From Terrimicrobiaceae bacterium (GTDB taxonomy: Bacteria; Verrucomicrobiota; Verrucomicrobiia; Chthoniobacterales; Terrimicrobiaceae), in contig JBIIPZ010000004.1 in the NCBI GenBank assembly GCA_044342325.1, positions 1 to 64,000 on the forward strand: a stretch of 64,000 nt of DNA, read 5' to 3'. The notes under the pieces were generated by a model, which was not told the DNA's origin, did not search any database, and saw only the letters and a program-made list of their open reading frames with translations. Below are positions 1 through 9,715 of this stretch, piece after piece. Within the stretch, counting starts at the first letter, position 1, and the number at the start of each line of letters is the position of its first letter. The position numbers and the translations under genes were made by a program.

Positions 1-195
1 GTGGTGGTTTTTGAGAAGTGACGGAGCGGGTCATGGACTGGCTTCATGGGGGTGAGTTTAGGAGAGTGGGCGGTCATGAACAACACAGATGGCTTAGCAC
101 AAAGCAACCAGAATGCAACACCTCAAATAATTGTAACCACGAGAGCGGGGCGTCGGCATCGTGATCCCCTTGATTACGAGCACCCCTATGACTAG

Positions 196-1077
196 ATGCG
201 GCGCTACGCGGAACTACTTGCCCTGAAGTATGATTGCGCGCGCACCCGGCACAGTTATTACCGCGCCATGCGGGTTCTGCACGAGCATTTCCAGGCCGAT
301 CCAGCCACGCTGGGGGAGGATCAGTTCCGCGACTACATTTTGCATGTGAAGACCCGCAAGCACTGGAAGCCCCAGACCATTCGCCAGACAGTGGCCTGCG
401 CCCGGATTTTCTTTACCGAGATGCTGGGCCATGCGGAATGGAAGGTATTTTCCCAGATTCGCACGAGGGATCATGAGGAACTGCCTGCTGTGCTTACGCG
501 CGAGCAGGTTCACAGGCTCCTGGGTGCCATTCGGTTGCGGCGTTATCGCATTCCGGTCAAATTGATTTACTGTGCTGGCCTGCGGCTCTCGGAATGCCTC
601 TCACTCACGATTCATGACATCCTCGGCGACGAGGGCAAGATCATGGTGCGGGATGGCAAAGGCGGTAAGGACCGCATGGTGCCGGTGGCTCCCGAGATGC
701 TGGAGGATTTGCGCCGCTACTGGAAGTTTCATCGTCACCCGCTGCTTCTTTTCCCCAATGCGGGGCGCGGTCCGTGCGATCCGGGGAAGCTGGCCACGCG
801 CATGAAGTTGGCAAGGTCGCCGATACCCTTGGGGTCGCTTCAGCGCTTGGTGGTTGTGGCTCGCAAGGGCCTTGGCATTCCCGATGCCACCGCGCACTCA
901 TTGCGTCATAGTTTTGCCACTCATCTCATTGAAGCGGGAGCCAGCCTGCATACGGTGCAGTCTTTGCTTGGGCACAAGCAGATCACGACCACCATGATCT
1001 ACCTCCATGTGACCCATCGCAGCGATCAGGATAGTCGCAAGCTCGTTGAAAAACTGACCGCCGGCCTGCCGAGGTAA
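196..1077 (+). CDS. Tyrosine recombinase (SAM-like N-domain plus Xer-type catalytic domain); possibly N-terminally truncated by an in-frame TAG at 193-195
   Basis: Motifs [29 protein letters not shown] and TMIY give the full R-K-H-R-H-Y set. An in-frame ATG at 76 has GGAGAG upstream. Confidence 0.93.
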
Positions 1078-1100
1078 CCCCGTTAACCTCACGCGACCCC

Positions 1101-2236
1101 ATGGCCTTTGCAGGCACTGTGATTGGGGCGCTGCGCCGTTTTTTACCCGATTTCCTGCGGGTGCATCCTGTGGGGGATCGGGCACGGCGGCGCGCCGTCT
1201 GGGCGCTCACCCATTGTCGCATGGCGACGATGGGCGGGCATGTCCATGCCTGCGAAAAATGCGGAACTACGCACTTTGCATTTCATTCCTGCAACCATCG
1301 CTCTTGTCCACAGTGCGGCGCACAGGACACCGCCGAGTGGGTCGAGCGCGAGCTCGCCAAGCGCATTGGCGCTCCCTACTTTATGGTTACCTTCACCTTG
1401 CCTCAGGAGCTTCGGCCTCTGTTTTTTACTCCATCGGCCAAGGCGATCCACGAGGTCTTTTTTGCGGCAGCCTCGGAGGCACTTTCCGCCACCCTTGCCA
1501 ATCCCCGCTGGCTGGGCGCCCGGCGCAGCGGGTTTACCATGATCCTGCACACATGGAACCAGCGCCTTCATTTCATCCTCACATTCATTGCATCGTTCCG
1601 GGAGCGGGGTTCGATCGCGAGGGCCACGTGGTGCGAGTCAAAAGCCCTGGGTTCCTTGTGCCGCAGCCCGTGCTCCGTGCGACATTCCGGCATCTCTTTG
1701 AGCAAAAGCTTTATGCTCTGCGCCAACGCCCGGAACAGGCCGCCCTTCCCGGCGTGGAACCCTCCGTCTGGAAAAAAGATTGGGGCGTGCATCTTCAACC
1801 CTTCGGCTACGGCCAACGCATCATCCAGTATTTGGGCAGGTATGTTTGCCGCACAGCCATCTCCGACGCCCGCATCCTGGCTGTCAGCGAAACGACGGTC
1901 ACCTTTTCGTGGAAAGACCGCGCCAATGGCAACGCCAAGCGAACCGAAACCATTTCGGGCGTCGAGTTTGTTTCCCGCTACCTGCGCCATGTCCTGCCCA
2001 TCGGCCTGCGCGCCATCCGCCGCTACGGCTACTGCCATCCCGCCGCCAAACTCCAACGCGAACGCCTCGCCTTCCACACCGGTATCCCGCTCAACCTTGA
2101 CGCGGAAGAACCACCCGCCCCCAAACCCGCCCCCGTTTGTCCCTGCTGCAAACAGGAAATGGCACCCCTCGAGCGAATCCTCGCCCGCTGGAAAATGGGA
2201 CGCGACCCGCCCCGGGACACCCCATGCGCGACATGA
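1101..2236 (+). pseudogene. IS91-family rolling-circle transposase, frameshifted near 1571-1573
   Basis: The frame starting at 1101 has the Zn-binding domain (CEKC...SCNHRSCPQC) and HTWNQRLHF. The HUH motif HPHIH, Y2 motif YLGRY and HVLP...IRRYG continue in the frame ending at 2236. One T appears to be missing in CATTTCATCCT. Confidence 0.9.
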
Positions 2237-2509
2237 CGCTCCACTTCAAGCGGTTCCAAAATAGACGGCTTATTTCAAAATCACGGATCAAGCCCCGCAG
2301 CTTCGTGGACAAAAACATTCAAAAGCTCAGCGGAGACAGGAAATGGCCAGCGCCGAACTGGCCTTGGAGGCTGAAAACACCTTGCCTTCGTCTTTCGAAA
2401 GCGACCGACGAGGCAACTTTCCAAGCCCAACCAGCTTGCCCTCCACTCCCCAGAGTCCCGTTTCAAACATAAACCGCATACGCCCCGCCCCCCCTTACAA
2501 ACCGGGCTT

Positions 2510-2573
2510 GTTCAACCATGGGTGCAGTCGGAGGGCTCGTGCCTCGCCTCCGCTACACCCTTAAACGTTCGGC
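2510..2573 (+). other. attC-like recombination site (folded ssDNA type)
   Basis: GTTCAAC (RYYYAAC) at 2510-2516; arm GGGTGCAG-T-CGGAGG at 2520-2534 pairs with CCTCCG-CTACACCC at 2547-2560 with one unpaired base; TTAAAC spacer; GTTCGGC at 2567-2573. The C/A mismatch becomes G-T on the bottom strand. Confidence 0.7.
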
Positions 2574-2576
2574 TCT

Positions 2577-2930
2577 TTAGAGATCACGGAATTCATACTT
2601 GAGCTTGAGTGAACCACCAGATGCGGTGCCAGCAAGATAGCGCACTTCTGCTTGGTCTGCATACCAATCCCCACCCCACTCAAAACTCACCGCTCCGCTG
2701 ACCATTTCCTTTTTGTAGACCGCACCATTCAAGATCAACTGGAGTTCTCCTTTTCCAGCTATCGAACCTCTGACTGCTATTGAGATGCCGACAATTCCCC
2801 TTTGGCCCGACTGCTTCTTCAAAATGATCGTCTCGTTTTTGGTAACGTCTTTCACGCTGACTTCGTGGCGTGCACAACCTGGAAGGCAGACGATTCCGAT
2901 CATGCCTAGTAAAACGAGGAGCCGCTTCAT
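2577..2930 (-). CDS. Hypothetical lipoprotein in an integron-style gene cassette
   Basis: Signal peptide with lipobox LPGC; more AT-rich than the flanks. On the - strand GTTCGGC lies 5 nt before the ATG and GCCGAAC 3 nt after the stop. Confidence 0.8.
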   Translation of the reverse strand: MKRLLVLLGMIGIVCLPGCARHEVSVKDVTKNETIILKKQSGQRGIVGISIAVRGSIAGKGELQLILNGAVYKKEMVSGAVSFEWGGDWYADQAEVRYLAGTASGGSLKLKYEFRDL

Positions 2931-2935
2931 TTTAT

Positions 2936-2965
2936 GCCGAACGTTGTTTGGTCACACAAATTTCT
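2936..2965 (-). other. Putative attI-like cassette insertion site
   Basis: The - strand reads ...AAATTTGTGTGACCAAACAAC-GTTCGGC-ATAAA-ATG. The core site has no attC hairpin upstream and sits between a promoter and the first cassette. Confidence 0.45.
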
Positions 2966-3028
2966 TGCTTATCAGTTAAGTCACGAAAAAAAGTGGAGCC
3001 TTAGCTTTTTGTTTATTTGTGTATCCTG

Positions 3029-3057
3029 ATAATATCAAGACCAATTGATATGCTCAA
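3029..3057 (-). promoter_or_regulatory. sigma70-type promoter directed at the cassette (Pc-like)
   Basis: The - strand reads TTGAGC-17 nt-TATTAT with an extended -10 TG (TGA-TATTAT) in an AT-rich intergenic region. Confidence 0.6.
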
Positions 3058-3086
3058 GCTTATGAATGCGTCTGGAGGGTGAGCGA

Positions 3087-3515
3087 TCAGGATCCGCAGC
3101 CGCCGTGGCCACAGCCGCAGGAGTGGCTGGAAGCGGCGGGGGCGGGTTCGAATTCCTCCGCTGAGTCGATGCGGATGGTTTCGATGGTGATTTGTTGGAG
3201 GGAGAGTTGGTCTTTGGCTTGGTTGAGGAACCCGAGAGTTAGGGGATCGGGTTGGTGGCGGGTGCGGAGTTGGACTTCGACAGGCTTGCCGACGAATTGG
3301 GGGAATGCCTCGGCCATTTCGCCGTCGAGGATGAAGGAGGCGTAGGCGTTGAGTTTTTCCTGAAGCTGGAGGATGTGCGCTTCGTCGCCGGTCCACGGAC
3401 GCGTCTCATACATCGCAAGCACGAGCGTGTCGCGGCGTTTGTCGTGGGCGAAGGCGTCGAGGACGGCGGGGTGCTCGAGGCCCATCGGACGGCGGGGCGT
3501 AGTGGTGGTGCTCAT
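3087..3515 (-). CDS. DUF6572-like hypothetical protein
   Basis: Motif LQEKLNAYASFILDGEM; Cys/Gly/His-rich C-terminal tail (SHSCGCGHGGCGS). Confidence 0.65.
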   Translation of the reverse strand: MSTTTTPRRPMGLEHPAVLDAFAHDKRRDTLVLAMYETRPWTGDEAHILQLQEKLNAYASFILDGEMAEAFPQFVGKPVEVQLRTRHQPDPLTLGFLNQAKDQLSLQQITIETIRIDSAEEFEPAPAASSHSCGCGHGGCGS

Positions 3516-3520
3516 TTTGG

Positions 3521-3614
3521 GAAGTTTTAAGAATTAAGAATCGTAGCGGAGCGGAGAAAGACTGCCGGAGGCAGCCCGAAGGGTGAAATGAAATTTCATC
3601 AATAAAGTTTTAAG
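3521..3614. repeat. Short structured intergenic element flanked by AAGTTTTAAG repeats
   Basis: AAGTTTTAAG at both ends with AAGAATT-type heptamers; internal hairpins CTGCC-GGA-GGCAG and TGAAAT-GAA-ATTTCA. Confidence 0.4.
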
Positions 3615-3647
3615 CAACCCACGGGCGCTGCATGCTTCGAGGGAAAA

Positions 3648-3778
3648 TAACCACGGAGGACACGGAGAGCACGGAGTAGAGAAGGAGTTTGCAGCAGATT
3701 GTGATCTGCGGAAAGCAGGAGAGAAACTTTGTTTCAGCTTCTAATAACCCTCCGTGCTCTCTGTGTCCTCTGTGGTTA
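3648..3778. repeat. 29-bp inverted repeat built from 9-nt CACGGAGnn units (REP/MITE-like)
   Basis: TAACCACGGAGGACACGGAGAGCACGGAG (3648-3676) versus CTCCGTGCTCTCTGTGTCCTCTGTGGTTA (3750-3778); 2 mismatches, both G-U compatible. Confidence 0.8.
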
Positions 3779-3820
3779 AATAAGATGCTTTTGGGTAACA
3801 TTATAAAAGCTGTTGGCGAA

Positions 3821-4255
3821 TCAAGCGGATTTGGGGAACCACTGGTAGAGCATGAAGTAAATGAGGACGCCGGTGACGGAGACGTAGAACCAGAGGGGGA
3901 ATGTCCAGCGGGCCCAGGCGCGGTGTTTTTCGAAGCGGCCTTTGATGGCGTGCGTCATGGTCACTAAAATGAGGGGGACGATGACGATGGCCAAAATGAT
4001 GTGGGAAATGAGCATTCCGTAGTAGAGGGGCTTCCAGAAGCCTTCGCCGCCGAAGGGGGTGTGGACACCTTGGACCAGAATCTTGTGCAGCACATAGGTG
4101 ATGAGGAAGACGCAGGAGACACAGAAAGCGCCGACCATGCAGTTCCGGTGGGCGATTTTGCGCTCGGTTTTGATGAAGAGGAACCCGGCGGCGAGGAGGA
4201 GGGTGGAAATGGTATTGAGGCCGGCATTGAGCGCCGGCAGGTCAGAAACGCTCAT
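3821..4255 (-). CDS. DUF420 family membrane protein (oxidase-associated)
   Basis: LPALNAGLN, HRNCM, HIILA, HRAWARWTFPLWFYVSVTG; last gene of the cox operon. Confidence 0.88.
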   Translation of the reverse strand: MSVSDLPALNAGLNTISTLLLAAGFLFIKTERKIAHRNCMVGAFCVSCVFLITYVLHKILVQGVHTPFGGEGFWKPLYYGMLISHIILAIVIVPLILVTMTHAIKGRFEKHRAWARWTFPLWFYVSVTGVLIYFMLYQWFPKSA

Positions 4256-4497
4256 GGGACCTTGTTGCTGCGGTCGAGCTTACGGCAAGTATCGGCGATG
4301 TAATAGGTGAGTCCAGCGACGATAAGGCCGACGATGGCGAGCATGCCGACGACTCCCCACGAGAGCGCGATGCCTGCGGTGACGGTTTGGGGTTCATCGG
4401 GGCCGCCAGCACCGGGTTGCCGGCAACCAACGCACGCGGCGGCTTCGGGCAGACGGGTGAGAAAAAAGAAAACGATCAGAGCGGTGAGGTTTTTCAT
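4252..4497 (-). CDS. Small membrane protein with CxxC (cox-cluster accessory)
   Basis: Signal-like N-terminus, ACVGC and one TM helix; 4-bp overlap with the DUF420 gene. Confidence 0.65.
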   Translation of the reverse strand: MKNLTALIVFFFLTRLPEAAACVGCRQPGAGGPDEPQTVTAGIALSWGVVGMLAIVGLIVAGLTYYIADTCRKLDRSNKVP

Positions 4498-4574
4498 TTT
4501 TTAAAAAAGATGTTCAGAATTTCTACGAGCCGGCGGTCAGGGAAGTTGGATTTTTTTGTCTCGGCAGTCTGAGT

Positions 4575-5234
4575 TCACTCGTTGCGGGTTTGCGTGGCCG
4601 AAGGTTTTTCGCGCAGGAGTTCTCCGATGTCCACCATGAGCTTTTGAACGGCTTCGGGATCGAGGCCGTCATGGTATCCGCGCAGCCAGCCTTTGCCATC
4701 GACAAGCACGATCCGACTGGAGTGGGCGGGCGTGCCATCGGGTTCCTTGGCGAGGGGTTGCAGGAGTCCTGTGACAACGATCTTTTGGATGGCGTCGGGT
4801 GTGCCGGTAAGGAATTTCCAAGAGGCGGGGTCCGCGCCCAGAGGCTCGCTGAAGGCTTTGAGGATTTCAGGCGTGTCGTATTCCGGATCGACGGTGAAGG
4901 TCACGAGTTCCACATTGCCGCGCACTTTTTTGAGCTTGGTATTGAGGTCCTGCATCCGGAGCACGGTGATCGGGCAGGGGCCTTTGCAGCGGGTGAAGAT
5001 GAAATTTGCGGCCCAGATTTTTCCCTTGAGATCCTCGAGCGTGATGGATTTTCCGGTTTGGTCGGTGAGTTGGAACGCCGGAACTTGAGAGATTTTCTCA
5101 AGGTTTGACGGGAGTGAAGGGGGGCGGGTGGATTTCAGGTTCACATAAGCGAGCCCAATAAGACCCGCCGCCACGAGAAATGCCACGACCCATCCGATGC
5201 GCGGTATGCCGGGCCGCGCGGGGATTTCAGACAT
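4575..5234 (-). CDS. SCO family copper chaperone
   Basis: FTRCKGPCP (CxxxC), TVDPEYDT and HS motif; N-terminal TM anchor; start taken at MSEIP. Confidence 0.92.
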   Translation of the reverse strand: MSEIPARPGIPRIGWVVAFLVAAGLIGLAYVNLKSTRPPSLPSNLEKISQVPAFQLTDQTGKSITLEDLKGKIWAANFIFTRCKGPCPITVLRMQDLNTKLKKVRGNVELVTFTVDPEYDTPEILKAFSEPLGADPASWKFLTGTPDAIQKIVVTGLLQPLAKEPDGTPAHSSRIVLVDGKGWLRGYHDGLDPEAVQKLMVDIGELLREKPSATQTRNE

Positions 5235-5850
5235 AATAAAGCAGTGCCAACACGAATAGCCACACGACATCCACAAAGTGCCAGTAGAGGGCGACATTGT
5301 TCAGAGCGATGTGGTGGGACGGGGTGAAGCAGCGGGTGAAGAGCTGGCGGAGGAAGCACCAGACGATGAGAAGAACGCCGATGATCACATGGAGACCGTG
5401 GAATCCTGTGATCACAAAAAAGCTGGAGCCATAGACGCCGCCGGTGTTGAACCACAGGCCTTCGTGGTGGAGATGCCACCATTCGTAGCACTGCACGCCG
5501 ACGAACAGGGAGCCGAGGGCGATCGTGACAAAGAGCCAACTCAGGCCGGATTTGCCTTTTTGAACGGCCACTTCCGCCATGTGGAATGTGCAACTGCTGG
5601 CGATGAGAAAGACGGTATTGATCGAGGTGAGCAGAACCGGAAGGTGGGCAATGTCCTTGCTCGGGGGCCAGGCGTGGCCTGCCTGCCAGGGGAAGCCGTT
5701 CTCTGCCCAGCGGAGGATGAAGTAGCCGCCGAGAAGCCCGGCGAAGAGCATGCCCTCGGATATCAGGAACATGATCATGCCGAATTTGGCTGTGGCTGGC
5801 GGTGCGCCGTGATGCTCGTGGGAATCGTGTGTAAGGGCTGCTGTGGACAT
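5227..5850 (-). CDS. ctaE: Cytochrome c oxidase subunit III
   Basis: FLISEGMLF, TGFHGLHV, YWHFVDVVW. Confidence 0.93.
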   Translation of the reverse strand: MSTAALTHDSHEHHGAPPATAKFGMIMFLISEGMLFAGLLGGYFILRWAENGFPWQAGHAWPPSKDIAHLPVLLTSINTVFLIASSCTFHMAEVAVQKGKSGLSWLFVTIALGSLFVGVQCYEWWHLHHEGLWFNTGGVYGSSFFVITGFHGLHVIIGVLLIVWCFLRQLFTRCFTPSHHIALNNVALYWHFVDVVWLFVLALLYYV

Positions 5851-5875
5851 GGTTGGTTGTTTTTTTAAAAAGGGA

Positions 5876-5995
5876 TCACGGACTTGTCAACGGACCGCGA
5901 ATGTTCATGAGTATCAGAACCAGTGCGCAGAGGGAAATAGCAAAAAGCCAAAGGAGGGCCATGACGATCGCGTTGCGAGAGGTTGGTTTTTTCAT
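5876..5995 (-). CDS. 39-aa single-TM protein (not in ORF track)
   Basis: MKKPTSRNAIVMALLWLFAISLCALVLILMNIRGPLTSP*; its ATG overlaps the ctaB stop (ATGA) and it fills the ctaB-ctaE gap. Confidence 0.6.
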   Translation of the reverse strand: MKKPTSRNAIVMALLWLFAISLCALVLILMNIRGPLTSP

Positions 5996-6882
5996 CTCTT
6001 TGTTGCAACGAGGAGGCCCAAGAGGAGCGGCAGGTAGATGATGGAGGCGAAGAAAAGATTCCGCGCCGCACTGCGGGTCCTCTGGGTGATGAAGCGCACC
6101 GCGAAGGCGGTGAAGGCAAGCCCGAGCGCCAGCGCGCCGAGGAAGTAGATCGTCGAATTGAAGCCGAGCATCGAGGGCAGCAAAGTCACAGGCACGAGAA
6201 AGAGGGTGTAAAGAAGAGCCTGGCGTGAGGTCAAGCGGCCCTCGGGGTCGTTAGCAGTGAGCATCACGAATCCGCCGTCGGCGTAGTCGTCCTTATACAT
6301 CCAGGCGATGGCCAGAAAGTGCGGCATCTGCCAGAACCAGAGCGTGGCGAAGAGGAGGCAGCCTTCGATATTGTAGTTTCCACGGGCGGCCACCCAGCCG
6401 ATGAGTGGCGGGAGGGCTCCGGGGATCGCGCCGACGAGCGTGTTCAGCGAGCTGATGCGCTTCATCGGCGTGTAAACGAAGATGTAGATCGCGATAGTGG
6501 CGAAGGCGAGGAAGGCGGCGCGATGGTTTGTGAAGAGTGCGAGGATGGCGATACCGCTCAGGGAAAAGAAAATGCCGAAGAGGAGGGCGTCCTGCGGTTG
6601 CATGCGGCGAGCGGGAAGCGGGCGTCCGCGTGTGCGCTTCATGCGGCTGTCGATGTCTCGTTCCCACCATTGGTTCAGAGCGGCGGCTCCACCCGCGCAG
6701 AGCGCCGTGCCGAGAAGCGTGGCTGTGAGGAGAACCCAGTCGAACGGCCCGCGCCAGCCGAGGAGGAAGCCTACGAGCGTGGTGATGAGGACGAGAAAGG
6801 AAAGGCGTGCCTTCACCAACTCAAGCACATCGTCGAGCAGGGCGTTTTTTCGTTCCTCTGGAAGGGCGGCAGCGCTCTTCAT
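5992..6882 (-). CDS. ctaB: Protoheme IX farnesyltransferase (heme O synthase)
   Basis: NQWWERDIDSRMKRTRGRPLP, YTPMKR, WQMPHF, YKDDY. Confidence 0.95.
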   Translation of the reverse strand: MKSAAALPEERKNALLDDVLELVKARLSFLVLITTLVGFLLGWRGPFDWVLLTATLLGTALCAGGAAALNQWWERDIDSRMKRTRGRPLPARRMQPQDALLFGIFFSLSGIAILALFTNHRAAFLAFATIAIYIFVYTPMKRISSLNTLVGAIPGALPPLIGWVAARGNYNIEGCLLFATLWFWQMPHFLAIAWMYKDDYADGGFVMLTANDPEGRLTSRQALLYTLFLVPVTLLPSMLGFNSTIYFLGALALGLAFTAFAVRFITQRTRSAARNLFFASIIYLPLLLGLLVATKR

Positions 6883-7931
6883 GCGGTGCGCGCGAATTCA
6901 GAAACAGGGGGGCGGTCAGGAACAATAAAACGGCCGGCCTCGGTGCCGCGCCAGAGACGGAAGGAAAACACAACGCCGACGATGAGTGAGAGGGCGCCGA
7001 GCGCCATGTGCGCGGTGGCGACATCCGCTGCTTTGTCCGACCAGATCGTCCAGGCTCCCAGCACGACCTGTGCAATGATCATGACGAGCCAGATTGTGGC
7101 CCACAGGCGGGCGGAGCGGGCAATAGGATTTGAAAACGCCCGCCACGCCACGGCGGTGACGGCGAAAAGAATAATGACGGCAACCGCCCGGTGCGCCATT
7201 TGAATCCAGATGTGCAGAGCGTTGGTGGGAACCTTGTCATCAGCCACGCGGGCTTCGTTGATCGAAGCAATCGCCGCCGCAGAGGTGTCAGGCAGGATTT
7301 TTCCGTAGGCGAGCGGAAAGTCGGGGATTGAGAGTCCGGCATGCTCATGGCGCATCGTGGCTCCGAGGCCGAGTTGGAGGAAAATGAGCGCGGTAGAGGC
7401 CACGGCCAGTTTCTTCAATGAGGTGTCCGGCAGGAAAAAGTCCCAGTTGCCACGCGCAAAACGCGGACTGGTTGCGATTGTGAGGACGCCCAAAAGGCAG
7501 AAGAACGACTGCGCCAACATGGCGTGGAAGATGCCGATCTCGTCTTTGAAGAGGGTCACGCGGAGTCCACCGAGCAGGCCTTGGATGCAGACGGCGAGGA
7601 AGGCGATGATACCGAGATTTTTCACCCAGCGACGCGGTTCCACAGAGAGTAGCGCGGCGGCAAGGATCATGGTCATTAAGCCCACCCACGAGGCGATGAG
7701 GCGATGCCCGTGCTCGTAGAAAATGCCTCCAACCCACCCAGAGAGGGGAAAAAGGAACATGTTGTAACCGTAGGTGGTTGGCCAATCGGGCACAGTCATT
7801 CCAGCTCCTTTGGATGTAACGATCCCCCCGCTGCAGAGCAGGATAAAGGTCGAAACCAAAGTGAGGACAGCCCAAATGTGGATTGCCACGCGACGGAAGC
7901 TTAAGGATGTGTTTGATCCATCCATAAACAT
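6879..7931 (-). CDS. ctaA: Heme A synthase (COX15/CtaA)
   Basis: GGIVTSKGAG..PDWP, EHGHR, QGLLGG, H, QMAHR; multi-TM. Start may be 7925. Confidence 0.9.
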   Translation of the reverse strand: MFMDGSNTSLSFRRVAIHIWAVLTLVSTFILLCSGGIVTSKGAGMTVPDWPTTYGYNMFLFPLSGWVGGIFYEHGHRLIASWVGLMTMILAAALLSVEPRRWVKNLGIIAFLAVCIQGLLGGLRVTLFKDEIGIFHAMLAQSFFCLLGVLTIATSPRFARGNWDFFLPDTSLKKLAVASTALIFLQLGLGATMRHEHAGLSIPDFPLAYGKILPDTSAAAIASINEARVADDKVPTNALHIWIQMAHRAVAVIILFAVTAVAWRAFSNPIARSARLWATIWLVMIIAQVVLGAWTIWSDKAADVATAHMALGALSLIVGVVFSFRLWRGTEAGRFIVPDRPPVSEFARTA

Positions 7932-7936
7932 GCCGG

Positions 7937-9715
7937 TTAGTGGGATTCCAAGCGGGCGTTTTCAGGCGCGCGCTCGGTCTGGGGGAGGTAATCCTTGTCC
8001 ATGCCAGGAACACTGTATTCGTAGGCACCGTGGTAAACGATGGGAGTTTTATCGAAGTTGCCATGCCCGGGAGGCGATGGAACAGTCCACTCAAGAGTGT
8101 TGGCATTCCAAGGATTGTTAGGAGCTTTTTTGCCATTGCGGAGGCTCATGACGACATTCCAGAGGAACACGAATGTTGTGAAGCCCAGACCGATAGCGCC
8201 AATTGTGCAGAGTTGGTTGAGAGGCTGGAGTTGACGCAGGTGCTCATAGACTGTGGGATCAGCGATACGGCGCATCATTCCGCCGAGGCCCAGGTTGTGC
8301 ATTGGGAAAAAGGCCAGATTGAAGAATACAAAGGTCAGGTAGAAATGCCACTTGCCGAGAGTCTCATTCAGCATGCGGCCGAACATTTTAGGAAAATAGA
8401 AGTAAATGGCTCCGAAGACCGCAAAGATACTTCCGCCGAAGAGCACATAGTGAAAGTGCGCGACAATGAAATAAGTGTGGTGCACGAAAAGATCCACCGG
8501 CGTGGAGGCCATGAAGATGCCACTGAGGCCGCCGATGACGAACATCGACACGAAAGCGAGGGCGAAACACATCGCCGTAGTGAACTCGATCGAACCACGC
8601 CAAATTGTGCCCATCCAGTTGAAGGTTTTGATAGCTGATGGAACAGCAATGACCATCGTGGAAACCGAGAAGGCGGCGCTGAGTGTCAGGTTCATGCCAC
8701 TGACGAACATGTGGTGGCCCCAAACGACGAATCCGAGGAATCCGATGGCGATCATGGCGTAGACCATTGCCTTGTAACCAAAGATCGGTTTGCGGGAGAA
8801 GACGGCCAGAATTTCCGAGGTGAGACCCATCGCGGGCAGAATCATGATGTAAACCTCGGGGTGGCCGAAGAACCAGAAGAGATGCTGCCAGAGGAGCGGT
8901 TGGCCACCGCCTTGGGGCGAGAAGAAGCTGGTGCCCATGTTGAGATCCGCGAAGAGCATGGCCGCGGCTGCTGAGAGCACGGGAACCGCCAATAAAAGGA
9001 GAATCGCGGTGATGAAGAGGGACCACACTGGCAATGGCATGCGGAACATTGTCATGCCGGGAGCGCGCATGTTGACCACAGTCGTGACGTAATTTGTGGC
9101 ACCGGCAATGGATGAGAGGCCGTTCACAAATAATGCTGCACACCAAAGACTCTGGCCTATCGGTGTTCCGTTATACGCAGCCACGGAACTGAGTGGCGCG
9201 TAAGCAGTCCAGCCGGTTCCCGGTGCACCTCCTGGCGCGAAGAAAGCCGCAAGTAGAATGACGCCAGAGAGGACATAGAGCCAGTAGCTCAACTCGTTCA
9301 ACAGCGGGAATGCCATATCACCAGCTCCGATCTGGAGTGGGATGAGGTAGTTGCCGAAGGCTCCGATGAGTAGCGGCATGACGACGAAGAATACCATGAC
9401 GGTCGCATGCATTGTGACAAGCATGTTGTAGCCACCGGGAATGATAGAGCCATCCACCGCTACGGTCGCTGGAAGGAGTCGGCCGATGATCGGGAATTCC
9501 GCGCCGGGGAAGCCAAGTTGCCAGCGGACACCAAGAGCGAGTGCACCGCCGAGGAAGAGGAAGGCGAGGGCGGTCCAGAGGTATTGGAGGCCGATCATCT
9601 TGTGATCGTAGGTCCAGATGTATTTATGGAAAAAGCCGACCTCGTGGTGGTCGGAGTGCGCGTGGGAGTTTGTCTCTTGGACGGGTGCGTCGATGGTGGA
9701 TGCTGACATTTTCAA
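7937..9715 (-). CDS. ctaD: Cytochrome c oxidase subunit I, type A1
   Basis: DHKMIG (D-channel), TMHA, WFFGHPEVY, VWGHHMF, AHFHY, MMRR. Confidence 0.97.
   Translation of the reverse strand: MKMSASTIDAPVQETNSHAHSDHHEVGFFHKYIWTYDHKMIGLQYLWTALAFLFLGGALALGVRWQLGFPGAEFPIIGRLLPATVAVDGSIIPGGYNMLVTMHATVMVFFVVMPLLIGAFGNYLIPLQIGAGDMAFPLLNELSYWLYVLSGVILLAAFFAPGGAPGTGWTAYAPLSSVAAYNGTPIGQSLWCAALFVNGLSSIAGATNYVTTVVNMRAPGMTMFRMPLPVWSLFITAILLLLAVPVLSAAAAMLFADLNMGTSFFSPQGGGQPLLWQHLFWFFGHPEVYIMILPAMGLTSEILAVFSRKPIFGYKAMVYAMIAIGFLGFVVWGHHMFVSGMNLTLSAAFSVSTMVIAVPSAIKTFNWMGTIWRGSIEFTTAMCFALAFVSMFVIGGLSGIFMASTPVDLFVHHTYFIVAHFHYVLFGGSIFAVFGAIYFYFPKMFGRMLNETLGKWHFYLTFVFFNLAFFPMHNLGLGGMMRRIADPTVYEHLRQLQPLNQLCTIGAIGLGFTTFVFLWNVVMSLRNGKKAPNNPWNANTLEWTVPSPPGHGNFDKTPIVYHGAYEYSVPGMDKDYLPQTERAPENARLESH

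Follow-up and report, generated by a model that had tools for sequence, protein, structure and literature searches.

An IS91-family insertion sequence with a tyrosine recombinase gene and an attC-like terminal hairpin of its own, beside an integron-type cassette in a Terrimicrobiaceae bacterium

Integrons are the main gene-capture device of bacteria, and to our knowledge only two kinds of mobile element were previously known to home to attC sites. The DNA analysed here comprises positions 1 to 64 000 of the forward strand of contig JBIIPZ010000004.1 (GenBank assembly GCA_044342325.1) of a Terrimicrobiaceae bacterium, and this whole 64 000-nt stretch is called the window. Its first 2569 nt are a decayed IS91-family insertion sequence on the plus strand, truncated at its 5′ side by the window start, in which a tyrosine recombinase (YR) gene lies between terIS and the gene for the HUH/Y2 transposase. 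By comparison with related loci, YR-bearing IS91 elements of this kind appear to be a third class of attC-targeting element and a little-noticed parasite of integron arrays. The structural statement, that is, the identity of the element, the ownership of its terminal hairpin and the insertion site of the family, with the assignment of enzymes excluded, is very probably correct.

As described in PMC13181058, the terIS of canonical IS91 is found by the upstream gene, with a palindrome where a GTTC-type site is cleaved. Its oriIS is located 3′ of the transposase gene; it includes imperfect palindromes in subterminal position and requires an adjoining CTTG or GTTC. According to the same source, transposition leaves no target duplication and gives single-stranded and double-stranded circles. 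IS91, IS801 and IS1294 resemble the window element in the Zn-binding and Y2 domains of the transposase, in the right end formed by a hairpin and GTTN, in the left end, where the small terIS palindrome adjoins a GTTG tetranucleotide for cleavage (GTTGAAC-TAA-GCCGC..GCGGC in relatives of the window element), and in the lack of an evident duplication. IS91 differs in that the slot of its orf121 is here occupied by the IntI/Xer-like tyrosine recombinase. Canonical IS91 also uses a target tetranucleotide, whereas the present family uses the R″-L″ junction of attC hairpins in a fixed antisense orientation and, unlike canonical IS91, has 7-nt boxes flanking its hairpin that are complementary to the left terminus. 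Among the IS91 members in ISfinder, some (ISShvi3, ISSod25, ISWz1 and others) have a 'phage integrase' gene upstream, and these have the same gene pair in the same order as the window element. ISShvi3 is remarked upon as lying next to an attC in PMC9229058. In a literature search with TnPedia and ISfinder outside its scope, this was the only such remark found for IS91-type elements, and no account was found of systematic attC targeting, of an insertion point at R″, of an antisense rule or of a covarying attC-like end.

According to PMC3001079, insertion of IS1111-attC elements and of group IIC-attC introns takes place close to the 5′ end of attC and antisense to the cassettes; both position and orientation are as in the present family. 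They work with a DEDD transposase and a retro-element ribozyme, respectively, whereas this family has an HUH/Y2 transposase and a tyrosine recombinase; unlike this family, they have not been described as carrying their own attC-like hairpin. Integron cassettes and IntI share with it a crossover at AAC/GTT, boxes RYYYAAC and GTTRRRY that would be complementary once circular, a strand-biased bulged hairpin, and IntI as the nearest solved relative of the recombinase. They differ in that the element recombinase fails the IntI cut-off and is without the IntI segment, and in that the element enters the other attC end and strand and carries its own transposase. Elements such as IS608 (IS200/IS605) and the CTX phage work with folded single-stranded DNA and with short guide or target sequences by hairpins; their enzymes and targets are different from those of this family, and the likeness may be taken as an analogy only. 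Integrons are present in Verrucomicrobia (PMC4889954).

For comparison, 79 related loci (L001–L079) were used, nearly all from metagenome-assembled genomes (MAGs) of Verrucomicrobiota, together with two plasmid loci (L080 and L081); 36 of 120 listed homologues were aligned. Many of the homologues lie on contigs of 2–3 kb, as is typical of repeated elements. The window element has 92–94% DNA identity to L001, L002 and L003, and for these three loci the identity ends at 2572, 2576 and 2579. Its left end is short by about 31–33 nt at the window start; the terminus is present in L003, where it reads (G)TTGAAC-TAA followed by a small GC palindrome. Full-length elements at the other loci measure 2518–2904 bp.

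The IntI/Xer-like recombinase gene runs on the plus strand from an ATG at 76 to 1077 and is interrupted by an in-frame TAG at 193–195, which is TCG in L003 when compared with the nearest relatives, so that an open reading frame (ORF) of 293 aa remains at 196–1077. This ORF matched the Pfam families Phage_integrase (PF00589, 1.3e-31) and Phage_int_SAM_4 (PF13495, 4.4e-08). Its best NCBIfam model was the integron integrase model TIGR02249, at 165.4 bits and under the cut-off of 265 (XerA model, 165 bits), and its nearest solved structure was VchIntIA (2A3V, 8.3e-33); TIGR02249 and 2A3V each matched in two stretches. Alignment to the IntI of L052 (28% identity) had gaps across the tryptophan-rich segment of true IntI, and the IntI-specific extra segment of the catalytic domain was absent from the element recombinase in this alignment. 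In the classification of 10.1101/542381, IS91 recombinases form an 'integron-like' subgroup in which the IntI segment is absent. The element recombinase is accordingly best described as a predicted protein that is IntI-like but not IntI. It is encoded upstream of the transposase at all loci with upstream sequence except L005, L036 and L068.

The transposase gene (1101–2236, plus strand) gave Pfam matches in two frames: Zn_Tnp_IS91 at 1101–1571 (PF14319, 1.8e-24) and, in the other frame, Y2_Tnp at 1565–2233 (PF04986, 3.6e-36). The frameshift lies at about 1571–1573 and consists, relative to L001, L002 and L003, of a 1-nt deletion (T4 to T3) within the HUH codons; the motif YLGRY is legible in the second frame. 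Intact homologues are common, with 378 aa, a whole HUH motif and up to 96% identity, and the window gene is either a pseudogene or carries a homopolymer error in the sequence. The original prediction, made from the window alone, had named an IS91-type HUH/Y2 gene and a tyrosine recombinase other than IntI. The Pfam matches agree with both genes, which additionally proved to be broken, and the recombinase, under the TIGR02249 cut-off and without the IntI segment, is a non-IntI enzyme as had been claimed, yet IntI-like.

Downstream of the transposase gene the element ends in a structure with the layout of an attC. A conserved block, CCGGGCTTGTTCAAC (2502–2516, plus strand), repeats the left terminus in inverted form and was also found by the left-end pattern on the opposite strand; it holds the R″-like box GTTCAAC at 2510–2516, which fits RYYYAAC, and the corresponding GTTGAAC columns are invariant in 34 distinct bottom-strand copies. 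The block is followed by an imperfect hairpin at 2520–2560 (arms 2520–2534 and 2547–2560, one bulge), which occupies the position of oriIS and is probably functional as the bottom strand. Beyond the arms lie a spacer, TTAAAC, and GTT at 2567–2569. Taken on the bottom strand, the order is xxxxAAC, spacer, bulged stem, spacer and GTTGAAC. After circularization R′ would read GTTGAAC, fully complementary to GTTCAAC; in the integrated state it is GTTCGGC, with C at the first R position. Folded as DNA, the site 2510–2573 gave −12.1 kcal/mol for the plus strand (z −1.69, 12 of 200 shuffles as good) and −13.9 kcal/mol for the minus strand (z −2.92, 3 of 200). In the alignment of homologues 93.1% of the cells were paired, 9 of 17 pairs had changed on both sides, and RNAalifold agreed; none of 500 shuffles reached as high a value, and slid registers gave at most 46%. 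The bottom strand folded better in 37 of 40 copies, by way of G-T pairs. One bulge is constant (alignment column 52) and a mismatch is frequent at columns 16/54. In canonical attCs, two or three bases are usually extrahelical. The covariation and its controls indicate that the hairpin structure is under selection.

The last 70–110 nt of the element (2464/2502–2573) are conserved even at loci whose transposase DNA has as little as about 65% identity, and L042 has 97% identity over 2503–2572. The end block was located at 41 places by a fixed pattern. A covariance model, R1, was built from the 34 distinct copies, the window copy among them, and gave 62 matches at E ≤ 1 (57 at E < 1e-4) in 80 sources, reaching as far as L059 and the L061–L068 group, whose transposases are about 38% identical. 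Within the window R1 had exactly one match, the hairpin at 2510–2569, with 74.4 bits for what is a training sequence. At L049 (202–5359), two complete elements stand head to tail in units of 2577 bp, with the hairpin between the bodies and a single GTT at the joint. Since identity ends at 2572–2579 and the terminal block is kept in distant elements, the hairpin at 2510–2569 is the conserved end of the element itself and not part of its neighbour. A scan of 1–4000 against Rfam (E ≤ 10), which has no attC family, gave nine weak, unrelated matches.

Some further hairpin loci were noted. The tandem at L049 may have arisen by rolling-circle read-through or by insertion of an element into its own end. 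To the left of an element in L052, at 2498–2559, lies an oppositely oriented hairpin that is a symmetric form of the terminal one, with spacers AATAAA and TTTATT that pair, and with 59.6 bits in R1 on the other strand. A 'solo' hairpin in L044 was considered as one left behind by an element and proved uninformative, as it is the 3′ remnant of a truncated element. Seven distant copies, L061–L067, come from a single Verrucomicrobiales MAG and have 38% transposase identity, a recombinase and a terminal hairpin with 41.8 bits.

The insertion target was read from the flanks of the related loci. The conserved sequence of the element stops at GTT, which is followed by C in 18, A in 10, G in 4 and T in one of the 33 distinct right flanks; CTTG stands at the end of 26 of the 49 distinct left flanks. 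The left flanks form families that recur nearby as repeats of the same orientation, a few hundred bases apart. Read on the strand opposite to the element, these host repeats are 89–129 nt long and consist of xxxxAAC-AAG, a long imperfect stem-loop and CGTT-xxxx, and each R′ has its complement in the R″ of the site belonging to the next cassette, as in L056, where GTTCTCC (6852–6940) is followed by GGAGAAC (6345–6440). By this layout the host repeats are textbook attCs belonging to genuine integrons. In all seven loci examined, the ORFs on either side of the element are encoded on the opposite strand. Integron integrase genes, divergent from the arrays, score above the TIGR02249 cut-off in L025 (344.7 bits), L051 (389.8 bits) and L052 (397.9 bits); the gene is partial in L046, and fragments of it are present in L006, L044, L056 and L050.

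Two counts place the element within these arrays. The exact inverse of the 7-mer at the right junction recurs 326–1288 nt downstream in 25 of the 33 distinct right flanks, where other 4-mers plus AAC lead one to expect 8%, and a hairpin of the form AAC...GTT is closed at the junction in 23 of the 32 distinct left flanks of the L008–L056 clade. The hairpin-geometry test behind the second count replaced a free-energy test in which the 120 nt left of each element were set against 500 control windows; a scanner for AAC[AG]AG...GTT hairpins was too noisy and was not used (48 matches, mostly in coding DNA, three of them in the window). An alignment of eight unoccupied host attCs was inconsistent between two length classes, and no host-attC model was built. 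Unoccupied paralogous sites carry one CTTGTTx, with no visible target duplication; GTT is present at both junctions, and the copy belonging to the element is indistinguishable from the other. The flanks indicate that the family inserts antisense in integron arrays at xxxxAAC/AAG, the junction between R″ and the stem of an attC.

Outside the Verrucomicrobiota, a Salinivibrio kushneri plasmid (NZ_CP114591, 5995–7919; L080) carries the same gene pair, here with a 4-nt gene overlap, and the same end blocks. Around the element, which is antisense to them, small genes follow one another on the minus strand in a long row, as is typical of Vibrionaceae cassette arrays. A second such copy, on a Photobacterium plasmid (L081), is not in an array. 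At several loci the element was seen in the attC of the first cassette, a few hundred bases from the integrase gene or its fragments (L006, 5461–6657; right flanks of L046 and L051). The integrases of L006, L044 and L046 look degraded, and the element may be associated with decaying integrons.

In the window the element abuts GTTCGGC (2567–2573), whose GTT is common to the element end and the target and whose complement, GCCGAAC, is the R″ of the adjacent cassette. This integron-type cassette (2568–2941, minus strand) contains one ORF, 2577–2930, for a protein of 117 aa with a lipobox-like N-terminus, for which a profile search found no family match. The ORF lies on the minus strand between GTTCGGC and its exact inverse GCCGAAC at 2936–2942, 367 nt apart, and the G+C content of the cassette is 0.49, against 0.56–0.62 in the surroundings. 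In L001 and L002 the same element end is followed in the same slot by different single genes (for a DUF4145 protein and a FAD monooxygenase), each with its own inverse bracket. The neighbour at 2577–2930 thus has the structure of an integron cassette, with GCCGAAC as its inverse core site. By analogy with the related loci, the window element would have split the attC of this small lipoprotein cassette, with the R″ GCCGAAC abutting the hairpin; the remaining part of the attC would then be found beyond the element, to the left of the window start.

Beyond the cassette, a 55-nt segment (2937–2991) has 87% identity to L001 and 93% to L002, the cassettes of which differ. The conserved part at 2943–2991 (minus strand), shared with L001 and L002 and with no integrase adjoining it, is a candidate attI-like site or boundary of a first cassette; judged by eye, it is unlike the integrase-proximal junctions of L025, L051 and L052. 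No integrase was found in the DNA of L001 and L002 that was examined. With respect to the original prediction, the attC-like layout that it had described for 2510–2573 (RYYYAAC, bulged arms and TTAAAC-GTT) was confirmed, its stem being corroborated by covariation across homologues, and the better pairing of the bottom strand by the energies of −13.9 against −12.1 kcal/mol and by 37 of 40 copies. Its suggestion that the hairpin travels with the element held when the 3′ flanks were aligned, identity ending at 2572–2579 and the terminal block being kept in distant relatives. The docking of the element at the inverse core site of a cassette with opposite orientation turned out to be a habit of the family in true integrons (25 of 33 right flanks).

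Several observations weigh against this account. Both genes are broken in the window copy, which therefore cannot show activity, and its left flank lies outside the window, so that the remainder of a split attC is not visible for this copy. There is no integron integrase within the 64-kb window, and the sequence following the cassette (2925–3074) showed no significant hairpin on folding (z −1.6 and −1.8). The 10-mer pair bracketing the cassette is on its own not above chance, with five matches at up to one mismatch against 6.3 expected, and the single-sequence fold of the hairpin is only moderately better than shuffles. R1 misses the host attCs of L001–L079 at E ≤ 1; in L080 it gave one weak match outside the element (13.2 bits, E 0.52), taken as a host attC. 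Since nearly all host attCs are missed by the model, the likeness between element and attC is one of layout and not of sequence. The free energy of the left flanks separated poorly from the controls, with 8 of 49 in the lowest 5%, and the attC and cassette criteria were failed by 9 of 32 left and 8 of 33 right flanks. Lastly, six of the seven L061–L067 copies are without an attC-like target although a recombinase is present, and because the left flanks of this group mostly lack attC-like hairpins, attC homing may be specific to one clade.

The mechanism that seems most likely can be outlined. The transposase would nick the bottom strand after AAC at oriIS and terIS and, by rolling-circle transfer, free a bottom-strand circle, the junction of which would fold into a complete attC-like site, GTTCAAC...GTTGAAC. 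The target would be the attC strand of the same polarity, which would show the transposase 'AAC + spacer + hairpin' as oriIS does. The bottom strand does read AAC at three sites: at ori, where the spacer and the hairpin of the element come next; at the target, where AAG and then the stem of the attC come next; and at ter, closing GTTCAAC. As an attC presents 'AAC + hairpin' in the manner of oriIS, the transposase alone could do the targeting, and most likely the attC mimics the element's own end. In the model of IS91 transposition, the bottom strand is the one transferred as the rolling circle proceeds from ori to ter, and this polarity fits the strand bias of the hairpin. On balance we lean towards a division of labour in which the transposase does the strand transfer and the recombinase acts on the folded or duplex junction, in resolution or re-integration.

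The enzymes could also be assigned the other way, as in the original prediction, the HUH transposase only making single-stranded circles and the IntI-like recombinase joining the folded junction to the folded attC strand; we regard this as possible but doubtful. It draws on VchIntIA as the nearest solved relative and the integron integrase model as the best NCBIfam match, on the 'integron-like' class assigned to IS91 recombinases (10.1101/542381), and on the place of the recombinase upstream of the transposase at every locus with upstream sequence but L005, L036 and L068. The circularized site, too, would have perfectly complementary, invariant boxes (GTTCAAC and GTTGAAC), the crossover falls at the canonical AAC/GTT, and the bottom strand is the one selected for folding. 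To be set against these points are the score of 165 bits relative to the IntI cut-off of 265 with the tryptophan-rich IntI segment absent, the L061–L066 copies, which have the recombinase and mostly no attC-like targets, and canonical IS91 elements, which have the same type of ends and transpose by the transposase alone according to PMC13181058. A more far-reaching form, in which YR-bearing IS91 elements would be a self-contained single-strand recombination system, sister to the integron, is rather unlikely: the rolling-circle product would fold like an attC, the IntI-like recombinase without the IntI insertion would join it to the 'wrong' strand of host attCs, and the elements might mark the lineage that gave rise to integron integrases and attC sites. 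Were it true, each insertion would give the upstream gene a new hairpin site and put the body of the element before the host hairpin, so that the element could make or re-pair cassettes.

Other explanations dispense with a role for the element's genes or with its ownership of the hairpin. It is improbable that the IntI of the host mobilizes the element like any other cassette, with the hairpin as attC and the element's own genes unneeded. The layout is cassette-like, with TTGAAC at the start and at the end a hairpin site of 62–70 nt with R″ GTTCAAC; integron integrases do occur near several loci, and the tandem copies of L049 resemble neighbouring cassettes. The element is nevertheless always opposite to the cassettes of the array and enters R″ instead of R′, unlike an IntI insertion, the copies L061–L066 lie outside arrays, and no integrase was found in the window or in the DNA of L001 or L002 examined. 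The hairpin had alternatively been proposed to be the neighbouring cassette's own attC, with the element inserted at its far GTT. The minus-strand lipoprotein gene, GCCGAAC, the hairpin and GTTGAAC do resemble a complete cassette when taken in that order; the same hairpin with its flanking blocks is, however, found 3′ of the transposase gene beside unrelated neighbours and in the L049 tandem, different cassettes abut it in L001 and L002, and the host attCs of these arrays are a different, longer family of 89–129 nt. This proposal was rejected as very improbable. Least credible of all is that the hairpin simply terminates transcription or is an inverted repeat that arose by chance. The position downstream of the last gene and the modest single-sequence z-scores would suit it, and it is contradicted by the lack of a T run after the hairpin, by flanking boxes that are invariant, a stem that covaries and a bulge that keeps its position across deep divergence, and by the coincidence of the hairpin with the exact end of homology.

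If attC targeting by recombinase-bearing IS91 elements is accepted, the family is widespread, from Verrucomicrobiota MAGs to a Salinivibrio plasmid, and would use the same spot of attC in the same antisense orientation as the two kinds of element known before. It brings with it a single-strand nuclease, the closest known relatives of integron integrases and an attC-like hairpin of its own, and may thus offer a concrete system for the recognition of folded attC by proteins other than IntI and for the origin of integron integrases and attC sites. For annotation, insertions of this kind would split attCs, break assemblies and can give arrays the appearance of cassette clusters that have no integrase.

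Further features were noted downstream in the window. Directly after the conserved junction segment, where an integron integrase would be expected, the minus strand encodes a DUF6572 protein with a Cys/His-rich C-terminal tail (3087–3515), which is also present in L002 (93% DNA identity) and absent in L001. Between this gene and that of a DUF420 protein lies an inverted repeat of 29 nt (3648–3676 and 3750–3778; 93% complementary, 73 nt apart), which is unique in the window, was the source of spurious MIR408 matches on both strands, and is matched by L002 in one arm only, inverted. It is followed on the minus strand at 3821–9715 by a housekeeping cytochrome oxidase cluster (DUF420, SCO1/SenC, COX3, UbiA-type haem O synthase, CtaA and COX1); as this begins about 900 nt from the cassette, element and cassette stand at the edge of core genes. 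In L001, a resolvase-type serine recombinase (PF00239, 8e-41) is encoded on the minus strand at 3898–4575, about 1.7 kb beyond the cassette. The L001 DNA beyond the 55-nt segment is unrelated to the window, and the element, cassette and junction block may therefore move within something larger.

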